A stretch of DNA of 64,000 nucleotides, taken from Pristiophorus japonicus. Taxonomy: Eukaryota. Each line of letters opens with the position of its first letter. The stretch's first letter is position 1. The notes under the pieces were generated by a model. That model was not told the origin of the DNA, made no database searches, and was given only the letters and a program-made list of their open reading frames with translations. Made by a program: the position numbers and the translations under genes. Location of the stretch: NCBI RefSeq assembly GCF_044704955.1, contig NC_091980.1, positions 130,572,001 to 130,636,000 on the forward strand. The letters are read 5' to 3'. Shown in pieces: positions 41,072 through 50,000 of the stretch.

Positions 41072-44000
41072 ATGGCTTCTCAAGTGCGTCAGAATTACCA
41101 CCAGGACTGTGAGGATGCTGTCAACAAGCAGATCAACATGGAGCTTTCTTTCTCCTATGTTTATCTCTCTATGGTGAGTTTTGTGTTTTTTGCTACTTTA
41201 CAATGGAGACTATGTAATGTGAATTTATGAAATCCTGTGCTGGACACAGCTCACCTCTTGTTCTGTTTCTGTCCACCCCGCCCTGAATCTATGCTGTGAA
41301 TTCACTTTTAAAGCTATAATATGATACAATTTATCTTTATTTGTTAACAAATTCTCTCTGTTCCTTGTATCATCTGATTATCTTGATTCTTTCTTTCTTT
41401 TTCCTGGAATCTTGAGCTTGATTAAGTTTATTTGGAATGCATTCTGCACACAATGCAAGGAGTTCAGAATTAGTATCCTCATTCTAAATCACTGCATGGA
41501 TTGTCCTTACCTTGCTGGTTCAATGGGTGGTGTCATAAAAATAAATCTAGGCCATTTAGGAGGGAAGTCAGGAAGTATTCTTTCCTGCCAGTGTGGTGAA
41601 AATCTGAAACTTTCTTTCCCAGCCATCCCTCACCTCGACAGAGGGAGGATGGGAGGAAAGTGTTACAAATGTTTCTGCTTTCCTCCTGTTCCTAGTGTTT
41701 CTAACCTCTTAATTTTAAGTACCAGATTGTATCCTTTCTTTCCTCTAACTTTTAGCACCAATAAAGCAAAAAGTTCATCACTTGTCTACAATGGACTCTT
41801 CCTTAACCCCTGTGATCTTCACCAAGCACCTCAAATTCTGAGGGGTTTTCATAACACTTTTTTTTTCTGTGGTCTCTGCTTCTCCGCTACTGTGCCAAAT
41901 TAATGCTGCTTGTGGTAGTTTTAGTTCTTTGGCATGATTGTAGCCAGTATGTTAGCATGAATGTTTTCTCAGAAGAATCACTCAACACTCAGTCGGTTCC
42001 AATGCCAATGCGGCCTTTATTTTGGCATGCGGGGAGGAAGCCTCAGAACTGGATCCAGGCACTTCTCTCCGACGAACAAAGAAACTCATTGATATTTATG
42101 TTTTACAATAGTTCTTTACAGTTACTCAGCCCACTTCGGCTGGTCACAATCCAATCATAACGATTATAGATTACATATAGGTTTCTTTAACCCAATAGAA
42201 TTCCCCATATACCTTAGGGGCTGTATGTTCGGTTTGTCAGCTCGGGCTGATTAATGATCTCGTTGTGAGGCAGGTTCTCCCATTATCTCTGTTTCCTCGT
42301 GGCTCGGCTGTGTGAATTCACTGATTATACCAGTGTACTATAATGGTTCATTATAATTATCTTGTATCCAAGGCATTCCTGGTAGTGGGCCTCACTAGGT
42401 CATTGCTCGGTCAGCCCCAGTTCATTACTTGACTAATTGAGTACCCATCATGCCTGGGCAGCCATTTTATGTGTGGCCACTTTAAACTTGAGTTTAGATA
42501 TATTCAGCAGGTGCCTAATGCCGACAACAATTCCCCCCCCACCCCCCCACCCTTAACTGACCGTCCTACTTTTAGATTTTGTGCACGGCCTGGTACTCCC
42601 TGCCTCAATGTGCTGGCGAGTCATGTGGTTTCAGGAGTCCCAGTTGCTTAAATCAAATTAACAAAGGCCAAATCCTCCTGCCCCTTTATTAGACAGGCTT
42701 GTTTAGTATTTGGGGACCGGTCATGGGTCCCTCTTCGTCGTGCTTGGTGCCTGCATGCCTGGCAGGCCATTCTGCCCCATGTTAATTCTAAGATCAATTG
42801 TATCCCGACCAGTATATGAAATTATTCGAATCCAAGGATGGATGTTCACATTTATTCCCCACTCCCAGACCTTTCTCCACCAACTCTGACTTTGTAAGTC
42901 GACTTCGATATCATCTTTCAGTACTTTGATTTTAGTTTGCAGTTAGTGGTAGAGCTTTACGGATTGACTCACCCTGAGCCTCAATTCTCGTAATACTTCG
43001 GTTAGATGTGGGATCGGGACCTGCTCTGGCTCGTCATAATCCTGCAAACGATCGTGGAGCTGATCGGTTACATCAATAACTTCAGGCTTCCGGTGCCTAA
43101 CCTGGGTGATATGCGCTTGCCCGATTGTGACAGGTCGTAGCGGCGCAAAGCAAATGTTCGGCTGTGGTATCGGGCACTTCAGGTCATTATACCGGTATGA
43201 ACGCTCTGTGGTAGAGACGCAGTATCTTCCCTCCCCTCTGTAGCCTACCCTCGCGAAGTGCCTGTGTGCGGGCACTATTTCTAGTACACACCCATCGGTT
43301 CGGTTAAACCCGCACTCGTCTAGCTCACCTCGGCCGACCGGGTGAGGGCATACTGCGATCTCCCCCTTTGCTTGCATTCTGTTAGGGAGATCCCGGTTTC
43401 TCCTCATCTCAGTCCCAAATGGCCGACCCCTTACCCTGAGACTGTGACTCCTGGTTCTAGACTCCCCAGCCCAGAGGGGCAACAGCCTCCCAGTATCTAA
43501 GCTGAATTATATATGTCGTATGTCGTTTCGACGAACGGCGGATGTGCTGGTCAGATAGTAACGTATGGAGACATTTTTCCATATTACTCCGATATTCTCT
43601 AGTTGGTACAGGGGGAACGGCCCTGAGTCCGGCGTGGCGATAGGGATCATCAGGACTATCCCTATCCCAGTATTACTACCCATCTGGAATTGCTGGTCAG
43701 TCCCTTCAGAGTACAATTATCCTTTGTCCCCCTCTGCTTAGCCAACTGAGCTAAATGTGAACTGTCTATCCAATCGGGTACTTCCCCGCATTGGATCTGG
43801 TTGAGATTGTGGCGGATCTGTCCCACCATCCACAGACCATAAGTGTGACAGAGAGTTGCCCCAGTCTTTGCTTTCCTGTATCTTCTTTTTCTCTATCAAT
43901 GAGGTGATTGATGGTTTTGGCGTGAGCTTCCAGGACTCAGATGCCATCCAACTGGATTTTGGCACCCTCCCTTCCTAGGTTGTACATTGTACATTTTCCT

Positions 44001-47000: not shown

Positions 47001-50000
47001 CATGTTGATTTACTTCCTCTGTTTGTTTTACGTGGGCTCGCAGTATCAAAACTACAGCCTTTTCATTTTTATCTTTCTTTTCCTTCTCCCACCATTCCGC
47101 TGGTCTGCTGGCAGGTCCTGAGGATCCCACCCTGCTCTAATCATTTTCTTGATTTCATTTTTTTTGTTTTTCCGCCAGGTGGCGGGTAAGGGACCCTTCT
47201 GGTCCCCACTCGGTTATTTGTTTTATTGGCCATACCTGGGTAGGACTAGAACCATTAGGAATCTACTCTCGGAGGTCCACTTTCTACCTAGCGTAACTTG
47301 TAGTAGACCGTCTCCTGGCTACTGTCAGGTCACAAGTTCTGCTGTTGCACAAACTTATTCAATTCTTAAAACGCGTTTAAGCAATTCCCGCAGTGCTCTA
47401 TGTATCCTTAACGACTACCTACCACTGCTCTGCCCGTTGGTCAGACCCTGTTCACAGGTTTGGATTCCGTTAGCTGCTGTACACCGCTTGGTTCTACTCC
47501 AGGGTATATTTCAAATTACACTAATGGGTCCGGAAGATGTCTTTCAGTATCATGATCCCACGGTCCAAGTGTGTTCCCGGCACCTACTTAGTTCCTGGCT
47601 GCCACGTGGGACTAAAGTCCTCTTAATTCAGGCTCAGGCTAGGTGTTTGAGATATTGGACTGTCTCCTCATGTTTATCTTCAAGCATCCACCTTCCGCAC
47701 CAGTTATAAAATTTTGTTTAAGGTATACACACCCGGTTTCTCCAAGAGCGCCACTGTTAGCGTGAATGTTTTCTCCCAAGAATCACAACACTGAGTCGGT
47801 TCCAACGCCAATGTGGCCTTTATTTTGCATGTTGGGAGGAAGCCTCAGGACTGGATCCAGGCATTTCTCTCCGACGAATAAAGAAACTCATCGATATTTA
47901 TATGTTTTACAATAGTGCTTTACAGTTAGCCCACTTTGGCTGGTCACAATCCAATCATAACGATTATAGATTACATATAGGTTTCTTTAACCCAATAGAA
48001 TTCCCCATATACCTCAGGGGCTGTATGTTTGGTTTTGTCAGCTCGGGCTGATTAATGACCTCGTTATGTGAGGCAGGATCTCCCCTTATCTCTGTTCCTT
48101 GTGGCTCGGCTGTGTGAAGTCACTGATTATACCAGTGTACTATAATGGTTTGTTATAATTATCTTGTTTCCAAGGCATTCCTGGTAGTGGGCCTCACTAG
48201 GTCATTGCTCAGTCAGCCCCAGTTCATTACTTGACTAATTGAGTACCCATCATGCCTGGGCAGCCATTTGATGTGTGGCCACTTTAAGCATATGAGTTTG
48301 GATATATTCAGCAGGTCCCTAATGCCTACAACACAGTAAAACTCAGCTAGTTTTTCTCTTTTTTTTTTTTATATACAATATGAATTCTGCACTGTGACTC
48401 GATCTCTAGTTTAGGAAGTTGCTTTGACTGCCAATACTGCCTCTCAATTAGCCTATACAAAATGTATTTGGGTTAATAAAGTCGTATTATTAGAGCATGC
48501 TACTGGTGACCAGGGTATAAATTTTGTGGCAACTCCTTCACTAATTTCCAGAGCCAAAATGAATATAGGGAGCCAAGATTAAGGTTCCAGTTTTAAGCAT
48601 GTTCAATCAAAGCTGAATTGGTGATTATGGAGTGATGCAGCACAGGAGGCCATTCAGTCCATTGTGCCTTGCTGAATGTTGGGTGGAGCGAAACAACTGT
48701 TTCCATAGCCTGCAAATTTTTCTAAATCACGCAAGAGGATGAGACTGGGGAATTAGTAATGGGCAACATAGAGATGGCAGAAAATCTGAACAAATATCTT
48801 GTATCTGTTTTGACAGTAGAGGACAGGAACAACATTCCAATGATGGATAGTCAAGGGGCTATAGAGGGGAGGTACTTAATGCAGTAACAATCACCTGATG
48901 AGGTAGGACTCACTAAGATAATTGGGCTAAAGGCAGATAAATGGTCCTGAAGGCTTGCATCCTAGGGTCTTGAGAAGTAGTGGCAGGGATTGTGGATGCA
49001 TTGGTTGTAATTTACCACAATTCCCTGGATTCTGGGGAGGTCCCAGCAGATTGGAAAGATGCAAATGTAATGCCCCTAATTTTTTTTTATTTTTGAAAAG
49101 TCGGAAACTATAGACCAGTTTGCCTAATATCTGATTGGAAAAATGTTGGCGTCCATTATTAACATAGCAGCAGGAACATTTGGAAAAGCAAAATTTGATC
49201 AGGTAGAGTCTGCATGGATTTATGAAGGGGAAGTCGTGTTTGATATATTTGCTGGCATTCTTTGAGGATGTAACGAACAGGGTTGATGGTGAACCAGTGG
49301 CTGTGGTGTATTTGGACTTCCAGAAGTATCTAGTAGTGCTGCAGGGATCAGTGCTGGGACCACAACTATTTACTCTATATTATATATATATATATATGTC
49401 CTTCCATCCAAGTCTGTAACGTAGCCTAGTTTGTTGTTCCTCCCAACTTTGTCAGTAATGTGTGAGAACACACATCTGCAAAAGGACATAGGCAGGCTAA
49501 GTGAGTGGGCAAAAATTTGACTGTTGGAAAGTGAGGTCATGCACTTTAGCAGAAAAAAAAAATCAGAGCAAATTTTTATTTTAAATGAAGCAAGATTGCA
49601 AAGTGCCACAGTACAGCGGAGTGGAGTGGAGTGGAGTTATTGAAATGTATAAGATTGAGGGGGCTTGACTGCGTGGATACAGAGAGGATGTTCCTGCTGA
49701 TGGGGGAGACTACAACTAGAGGCATGATCTTAGAATAAGGGGCTGCCCATATAGAACTGAGAAAGTTCTTAAGGGTTGTCAATCTGTGGAATTTGCTGAG
49801 CTGTGGAAAGCTGAGACATTGAATAAATTTAAGACTGTAATACAGTTTCTTAAATGCTAAGGGATTATGTGGGGATAAGTCAATGATCAGATCAGCCATA
49901 ATAAATGGTGGAAAAGGCTCGGAGCTGTGTGATCTACTCCTGTTCATATTTCTCATAAGTTTCCCTATGGCTGGAGCTGAAATTATCCAATGTCTTTACC

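Follow-up and report, generated by a model that had tools for sequence, protein, structure and literature searches.

A pol-less, env-carrying endogenous retrovirus of Pristiophorus japonicus, probably copied in trans by complete SnRV-like proviruses

Proviruses that hold an envelope gene but no polymerase raise the question of how they were copied and from which retroviral lineage they came. One such element lies on the minus strand of a 64-kb stretch of the Pristiophorus japonicus genome, the whole of which is referred to here as the window. A first-pass annotation had proposed either a non-autonomous member of a lokiretrovirus- or errantivirus-like lineage or a provirus that had suffered an internal deletion. 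The analysis described below indicates that the element is very probably one dead copy among many of a defective endogenous retrovirus (ERV), likely copied in trans by complete, snakehead retrovirus (SnRV)-like proviruses of the same family.

Layout of the window element

The provirus is bounded by a 5′ long terminal repeat (LTR) of 579 bp (47755..48333, minus strand) and a 3′ LTR of 580 bp (41950..42529, minus strand), both with TG..CA ends. Alignment of the pair gave 542 matches, 30 mismatches, and 16 gap columns (K2P 0.055). The target site duplication (TSD) CAGTA is found at 48334..48338 on the 5′ side of the provirus and at 41945..41949 on the 3′ side (both given on the plus strand), and a paralogous unit of the tandem duplication in the window retains the preinsertion site empty, with a single CAGTA at 17879..17883 (plus strand). 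The interior, all on the minus strand, begins with a degenerate primer binding site (PBS)-like sequence that matches only over its first 6 to 7 bases (47736..47753) and a leader common to the helper proviruses described below, which likely contains the packaging signal (47246..47735). It continues with a broken 5′ stub of gag of about the first 90 codons (46978..47245), which tblastn aligned to residues 13 to 90 of the helper Gag with 60% identity (E 1.6e-15), and a noncoding, AT-rich block (67% A+T) where gag-pol would be (44930..46977). A broken env (42648..44696) and a polypurine tract, seen as a run of purines (42531..42552), complete the element. Searched by tblastn with the helper Pol, the element gave no hit below E 0.39. 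The parts first described here from the letters of the sequence, namely, the paired LTRs with their TSD, polypurine tract, and PBS-like site, the gag-like and glycoprotein remnants, the AT-rich block, and the lack of pol, were thus all recovered. As in helper-dependent ERVs, the LTR pair, PBS, polypurine tract, and TSD are retained and gag-pol coding capacity is absent.

Compared with an open-frame relative, the window env has 3 stops and 8 frameshifting indels. Two further changes were overlooked at the first reading: a 239-bp stretch encoding the furin site and fusion peptide has been lost near 43982/43983, and a CR1-type LINE fragment of about 120 bp lies within env (43396..43517, minus strand; blastn to the window's CR1 open reading frame [ORF], 77%, E 4e-20). 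The window copy is an ordinary dead fossil.

A dispersed pol-less family and its complete relatives

The colinear pol-less layout was present in 20 of 20 copies selected by env, which were chosen mostly for long open frames, and in 16 of 20 copies selected by the leader, a sample biased toward the window's subfamily; the other four were one helper-type copy and three truncated or interrupted ones. Among six readable copies, four had TSDs of 4 to 5 bp that differed between dispersed copies. A search with the AT-rich block returned 40 scored matches from 2211 first-look candidates, all 40 at 92 to 100%. The block is homologous across all defective subfamilies and absent from the helpers, and blastn against helper gag-pol gave no match better than E 0.39. 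We therefore rejected decayed gag-pol as its source and regard the block as a replacement of gag-pol. A search of 21 pol-less copies with the Pol of a second family, family B, yielded nothing better than E 1.2, and by eye, among the 150 env matches listed, at least 6 had a listed reverse transcriptase (RT) match within 6 kb.

The non-autonomous, env-carrying form is thus multicopy, and rather than every other copy having pol, most of those sampled by env or leader are pol-less. This disposes of the proposal of an internal deletion as a one-off event. Spread of one deleted provirus by segmental duplication alone is extremely improbable: five nearby paralogues on one contig (L002 to L006 on C4) do carry the window's flank, three of them with the same junction string, but dozens of copies are dispersed over many contigs with other flanks and TSDs, and the block replaces gag-pol instead of being its decayed remnant. 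That origin is refuted for the family and holds only for the local copies on C4.

The pol-bearing partners that the first-pass annotation suggested looking for were found. Complete gag-pol-env copies of 9.4 kb share the LTR ends and the tRNA-Ser primer site of the pol-less form, the family's PBS being an 18-nt complement of tRNA-Ser(CGA) or tRNA-Ser(AGA). They accounted for 8 of 20 loci selected by pol, and in 7 of these 8, the LTR pairs were 99.1 to 100% identical. Of 116 loci scored with the helper RT, about 95 matched at 70% or more, and the 5′ LTR of the window element lies at a group mean distance of 0.08 from the LTR of a helper-type copy, L093. Helper gag and pol form one frame interrupted by a single TGA, and some complete helpers have an open env. 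There is also a third form, lacking gag and protease, that combines the AT-rich block with pol; its LTR pairs are 99.6 to 100% identical, and it has open RT-RH-IN frames of 1030 to 1131 codons together with a 148-bp loss from env. Two other candidates were set aside. Locus L109, considered as a gag-only segment, is a single helper copy with an internal deletion. Family B, the first pol-bearing family with an F-type env to be found, has no DNA similarity to the element, has a different PBS and a different LTR, and is 30% identical in env. No relative of the Pol was found among the viral contigs searched.

An F-type envelope and the lineage of the helper

The resemblance of env to F-type fusogens, at first noted by eye, was upheld by structure prediction. 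The modeled fold of P0003, a natural shark sequence 57 to 63% identical, matches paramyxovirus and pneumovirus F with a Foldseek E of 1e-11 (mean pLDDT 65; TM-scores of 0.2 to 0.35 when normalized by query length). Relatives of the window env, which itself lacks the furin and fusion peptide stretch, have a furin site, fusion peptide, HR1, beta-rich DI/DII, HR2, and transmembrane segment (TM). The Env, of about 700 amino acids, is accordingly predicted to be a class I fusogen of the paramyxovirus/pneumovirus F type, that of measles virus and RSV, with membrane fusion activity. The gamma-type CX6CC motif, reported missing at the outset, is absent from all seven env copies read, and no gamma-type Env Pfam family matched among 42 relatives. 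By sequence, PF00523 did not match env, PDB searches found nothing, and a Pfam scan of the window pieces and the 42 relatives gave no fusogen family above the cutoff, with a single Baculo_F match (E 0.001) below it. The first-pass annotation had set an F-type env against ordinary epsilonretrovirus or foamy ones; Env of the epsilonretroviruses WEHV-1 (E 6e-13) and WDSV (E 7e-12) and foamy Env also match the same fold, the last with a Z score (7.4) below that for paramyxovirus/pneumovirus F (9 to 10). The genome holds three separate env families, which have relatives in frogs.

Since epsilonretrovirus and foamy Env match the same fold, an F-like env is no marker of lokiretroviruses, and in its motifs, the helper RT instead resembles that of SnRV. 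It has five of five SnRV-type motifs and none of four Loki-type motifs, the motifs having been picked after the alignment was viewed. In a FastTree tree of RT computed without a named SnRV, the helper's family (family A) joined the gamma/epsilon-like rows with a support of 97, not the frog or coelacanth rows, and was placed outside but beside the gamma/epsilon-like clade; eight Gypsy-like rows were separated from it with a support of 100. Both lineage labels of the first-pass annotation fail on this RT, lokiretrovirus by its motifs and errantivirus by its place in the tree. That the family is a lokiretrovirus derivative, an env counterpart of the gag-only Bhikhari elements, is very unlikely and largely refuted. 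It would explain the F-type env with furin site, fusion peptide, heptads, and TM, as well as the tether detected by Pfam and the second RNase H seen as a motif in helper Pol, but of these traits of lokiretroviruses, the last two are not specific to them, dual RNase H being to our knowledge a property of all retroviruses. The helpers also have no smc-like ORF, and their RT reads LPQG where Loki RTs have a PFG-type motif in the supplementary passages of PMC7947760, a study in which 0 of 3 chondrichthyan genomes were positive.

Selection on env and relation to known systems

Between subfamilies, env has a dN/dS of about 0.18, the mark of purifying selection, and within the window's burst, it decays neutrally. 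Private changes in 15 of the 26 burst copies (L037, L097, and L029 being left out of the burst group) split 110/107/116 over codon positions 1/2/3, with 10 stops among them, and the dN/dS of the window env against burst copies is 0.67. The initial 75 and final 5 codon columns of the reference frame do not enter any of these dN/dS values. The block tree and the env tree, the latter of 50 of the fetched copies, disagree: L037 has a p2-like block with a burst-like env, and gag-less copies have a p2-like block with an env 0.018 from that of young helpers. This conflict denotes recombination with helpers, and LTR, env, and pol are exchanged as mosaics between the defective backbone and the helpers. 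Such recombination accounts for the low env dN/dS, and env is therefore most likely a passenger. Two observations run against a passenger: each of the 35 pol-less copies aligned keeps an env of nearly full length, and pN/pS is 0.18 on internal branches inside the pol-less subfamilies, an excess of constraint unless those branches are helper derived.

From the shared cis ends and the mosaics, we infer mobilization in trans. Helper Gag would package the defective RNA, helper RT would copy it from a tRNA-Ser primer, and helper integrase would insert the product. With RNAs copackaged, template switching may replace its LTR and env with those of whichever helper is current, so that env would be largely a passenger that decays after every insertion. 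The window copy would later have gained its LINE fragment, been duplicated with the tandem array, and lost the fusion peptide region.

It is possible, although quite unlikely, that the retroviral genome is divided, with env-only copies selected to supply Env to env-broken partners, such as the gag-less form, as cooperating segments. The near-complete env genes, the internal-branch pN/pS, and the open pol frames and env loss of the young gag-less form would fit such a scheme. However, some complete helpers have an open env, and partners therefore have no need of an Env supplied from elsewhere; Env works in trans, and an RNA encoding it gains no advantage; env decays neutrally in the window's burst; and the recombination seen with helpers explains the low dN/dS. 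A broader version is also unlikely: a shark retrovirus split into cooperating env-only and gag-less, protease-less pol genomes on one noncoding backbone, selected alongside complete proviruses and still active, its F-type envelope perhaps being the fusogen ancestral to retroviruses and common to SnRV-like, epsilon, foamy, and loki lineages. Co-option of env by the host at the window locus has no point in its favor and is refuted, as next to impossible, by the 3 stops, the 8 frameshifting indels, the lost fusion peptide, the LINE insert, and the dN/dS of 0.67. Elsewhere, locus L042 is a candidate for env co-option.

Helper-dependent defective ERVs include chicken EAV-HP, which is not known to have a pol, and murine VL30, ETn, and SFFV. 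In these and in the window's family alike, defective copies outnumber the helpers and keep cis signals, and EAV-HP has exchanged env with a replicating virus, giving ALV-J (PMC10820513). The bovine ERVK[2-1-LTR] D-type elements (PMC10924933) belong here too, but they have no functional genes, whereas the window's family retains env. The family also differs from these ERVs in that gag-pol was exchanged for an unrelated 2-kb AT-rich block kept over several waves. Bhikhari is similarly a non-autonomous single-gene derivative, although Bik-2 keeps only gag (PMC12067270). The helper shares RT motifs, a cartilaginous fish host, and a non-Gypsy dual RNase H Pol with published descriptions of SnRV-like ERVs, including CmiERV lineage I of the elephant shark (Han 2015, PMC4422223; Naville and Volff 2016, PMC4977317), and is of similar length (9.4 kb versus about 9.6 kb for CmiERV-1). 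Set against those descriptions, the window's family is young, its helper LTR pairs reaching 100% identity, and has a dominant env-only defective form and a predicted F-fold Env, all of them traits undescribed in the relevant passages of the two papers. Lokiretroviruses share the F-type Env but differ in RT motifs and are unreported in chondrichthyans (Wang and Han 2021, PMC7947760). Foamy Env (Fernandez 2024, PMC11468914) and epsilon Env (WDSV and WEHV) belong to the same F-related fold class, and the Env described here is nearer to paramyxovirus/pneumovirus F than to foamy Env; unlike in those viruses, gag and pol share one frame. Env feature neighbors include Baculo_F and Gypsy env clusters, a likeness to the errantiviruses (Metaviridae), but the helper RT is not part of the Gypsy clade, and a survey found no errantiviruses in vertebrates (PMC13524379). 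Our literature search, which mostly covered papers outside subscription, found none on the window's family or on an F fold for SnRV-like Env. The present analysis adds the multicopy form with env only, together with its helper.

ERVs usually amplify after loss of env. The amplified defective form described here kept env and lost gag-pol, the reverse of that pattern. These findings extend the F-type envelope to SnRV-like retroviruses of sharks, and together with the three env families and the frog relatives, this favors an F-type Env that is old and shared among basal retroviruses over a capture of env specific to lokiretroviruses, one open scenario in PMC7947760. With young helpers and several readable waves of copies, the family provides a natural data set on whether selection can act on env when the genome carrying it is unable to use it in cis.

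The pol-less element, its family and its helpers

The element lies on the minus strand of the window at 41950-48333, and the first-pass annotation was borne out as to its existence and structure. Its paired LTRs are flanked by CAGTA on both sides; the 5' LTR is followed by a degenerate primer site, and the 3' LTR is preceded by a purine tract. An empty site with a lone CAGTA is present at 17879-17883, in a paralogous unit of a tandem segmental duplication. This duplication spans positions 1-64000 of the window and G000:C4:130.3-130.9 Mb in units of 25 to 30 kb that are 88-99% identical; it contains many CR1 and Gypsy remnants, and no host gene was identified among the ORFs of at least 150 aa in the window region. 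Five paralogues near the window (L002-L006) have the flank of the element and are segmental duplicates. All five carry a LINE fragment within env, and 239 bp of env that are absent from the window copy, L002, and L003 are still present in L004-L006. Alignment of the two LTRs gives 542 matching positions, 30 mismatches, and 16 columns with gaps (K2P 0.055). The resulting age is loose, at about 12 to 124 million years, because it spans the rate for LTR dating given in PMC7947760 (2.2e-9) and the rate assumed for sharks in PMC4422223 (2.2e-10).

The gag stub of the element corresponds to residues 13-90 of the Gag of its helpers, the complete gag-pol-env proviruses of the same family (family A), at 60% (E 1.6e-15). 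No similarity to helper gag-pol was found in the noncoding AT-rich block that stands in its place, and gag-pol has therefore been replaced rather than eroded. In the 5.9-Gb genome, one piece of env matched at least 150 loci. The 20 dispersed copies selected by env, most of them because their frames were long and open, all matched the window element colinearly and lacked pol; among 20 copies picked by the 5' leader, 16 were pol-less, 3 were truncated or interrupted, and one (L093, 9.3 kb) contained gag, pol, and env inside the same LTRs. By both selections, then, the pol-less layout is that of a family. The family is clearly large: all 40 scored matches to the AT-rich block were 92-100% identical, from 2,211 first-look candidates, which are not copy numbers.

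The reverse transcriptase (RT) of L093 matched at least 116 loci, with about 95 of the 116 listed at 70% identity or more, and 20 RT-matched loci were fetched for reading of their layout. Eight, each 9.4 kb long, are complete proviruses whose frames have about 470, 1,180, and 740 codons, and in seven of these the LTR pairs are 99.1-100% identical. Another has an insertion in env. Four young copies (L118, L120, L121, and L122) have a third layout, in which the AT-rich block replaces gag and protease, RT-RH-IN is open, and 148 bp of env are lost. The others belong to older subfamilies (three), lack the ends of the family (two), or come from related families (two). Helpers and defective copies have LTR termini in common, and their primer sites are complementary to tRNA-Ser(CGA) or tRNA-Ser(AGA), genes for both of which were found in this genome. 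The 3' pattern of tRNA-Ser(AGA) has 1,022 exact matches genome-wide, many of them in a 1.95-kb tandem array at G000:C23:18.57-20.47 Mb; the two match loci checked, both off the array, are tRNA-Ser(AGA) genes. In all six helpers read, Gag and Pol occupy one frame with a single TGA between them, an arrangement that suggests read-through.

Predicted envelope fold and lineage of the helper

The closest relatives of the envelope are in Pristiophorus, Mustelus, Heterodontus, and Chiloscyllium, which points to a shark-type host genome; Pfam and PDB sequence searches returned no match naming it. A structure was predicted (model mfc149c3d9ca1) not for the window copy but for P0003, a natural Mustelus relative of 714 aa that is 63% identical to the window piece and 57% identical to the helper envelope, together with 41 relatives. 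Mean pLDDT was 65, and residues 1-160 were poor. The matches listed by Foldseek against the PDB were all paramyxo- or pneumovirus F (best E 1e-11), and VIA-align placed ten such F chains at the top (Z 10.4 to 7.5), followed by foamy virus Env (Z 7.4). The best BFVD matches were a fish filovirus glycoprotein and the Env of WEHV-1 and WDSV, followed by paramyxovirus and baculovirus F. In Atlas, the Baculo_F, Gypsy env, and Fusion_gly clusters lay at 0.93-0.94 to the envelope. When normalized by query length, TM-scores of the model were low, at 0.2-0.35. Such values are to be expected of a long monomeric model whose helices can move, and the F-type call therefore rests on the agreement among these comparisons. 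The BFVD matches also suggest that the Env of the epsilonretroviruses WEHV-1 and WDSV and the fish filovirus glycoprotein have an F-type fold. In six of the seven env copies read, a furin site precedes a stretch resembling a fusion peptide; the window copy lacks both, and CX6CC is absent from all seven. More distant relatives (P0031, P0040, P0063, and P0043; 19-25% identity) occur in the frogs Pelodytes, Mantella, Bombina, and Xenopus, and thus this envelope type spans sharks and amphibians. The Mantella relative has 16 near-copies.

The first-pass annotation had proposed an env-carrying element mobilized in trans, with an F-type envelope, from a lokiretrovirus- or errantivirus-type lineage, or else an internally deleted provirus; the env-carrying element and its predicted F-type envelope hold, mobilization in trans is likely, and the lineage is not supported. 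The RT alignment in the supplement of PMC7947760 has a PFG-type motif in lokiretrovirus rows where snakehead retrovirus (SnRV) has LPQG. Helper Pol has five of five SnRV-type and none of four lokiretrovirus-type RT patterns, chosen after the alignment had been viewed, and on these motifs lokiretrovirus identity was largely rejected. In PMC7947760, none of three chondrichthyan genomes is reported as lokiretrovirus positive, and PMC4422223 describes SnRV-like endogenous retroviruses (ERVs) in elephant shark. In an RT tree of 34 rows, none a named SnRV or lokiretrovirus, family A falls outside the eight Gypsy-like rows, and errantivirus identity was rejected on this placement; it adjoins the gamma/epsilon-like clade from outside. 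The tree speaks neither for nor against the SnRV-like placement to which the motifs point.

Two further F-env families are present in this genome. Family B (L062-L080 and L082-L089) consists of 11.7-kb proviruses with 1.3-kb LTRs that are 97.5-99.9% identical, a gag that encodes a coiled coil and a zinc knuckle, a pol with dual RNase H, and a putative tRNA-Arg primer site. Its env has 800 codons, is 30% identical to that of family A, and has a weak Ig-domain match; frogs and coelacanth hold the closest named relatives of its Pol. The third family is represented by a provirus (L042, G000:C18:30164500-30174499) that has LTR pieces no more than 86-88% identical and, on the minus strand at L042:2851-5208, an env open for 786 codons. 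Sibling copies of this env are at most 93% identical, and those seen are broken; it is a candidate host-co-opted envelope gene.

Exchange of env between defective copies and helpers

For env, pairwise dN/dS was 0.46 inside the burst, the pol-less subfamily of the window element (325 pairs). It was 0.25 when the two pol-less subfamilies were compared and 0.18 when the burst was compared with young helpers. From shared, internal changes, most contrasts gave 0.14-0.18; a single contrast within the burst, with few changes, gave 0.36. The private changes of 15 burst copies number 110, 107, and 116 at the three codon positions and include 10 stops; so even a spread reflects neutral decay. The AT-rich block is one backbone common to all defective forms (38 rows), and its tree conflicts with that of env. 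L037 has the block of one pol-less subfamily and the env of the other, in gag-less copies a block of the pol-less type accompanies an env at a distance of 0.018 from that of young helpers, and the LTRs of each defective wave resemble those of the helper of matching age. These conflicts, mosaics, and matched LTRs show that env has been exchanged between defective copies and helpers, and such exchange could explain the low dN/dS with no need for selection on defective copies. Selection may nevertheless have acted on the env borne by defective copies, as all 35 pol-less copies aligned have kept env at nearly its full length and a value of 0.18 was obtained for the L035/L036 branch. Between subfamilies, the block has diverged less (0.08) than the synonymous sites of env (0.165); constraint on the block and exchange of env could each explain the difference.

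Probable helper dependence of the defective form

VL30, ETn, and SFFV are helper-dependent defective ERVs, and EAV-HP is not known to have pol. Separately, there are precedents for ERVs that depend on helpers, for SnRV-like ERVs in sharks, and for retroviral Env of F type. Our literature search found no description of family A, although SnRV-related env data may exist in preprint supplements outside its scope, and no large env-only family with young helpers that combines these features in print. The defective form has a distinct anatomy, is dispersed, has cis signals in common with its helpers, and is mosaic. By general retrovirology, its RNA would be transcribed from the 5' LTR, packaged by helper Gag via the retained leader, and primed by tRNA-Ser; helper enzymes would carry out reverse transcription and integration, and co-packaged RNAs would undergo template switching.
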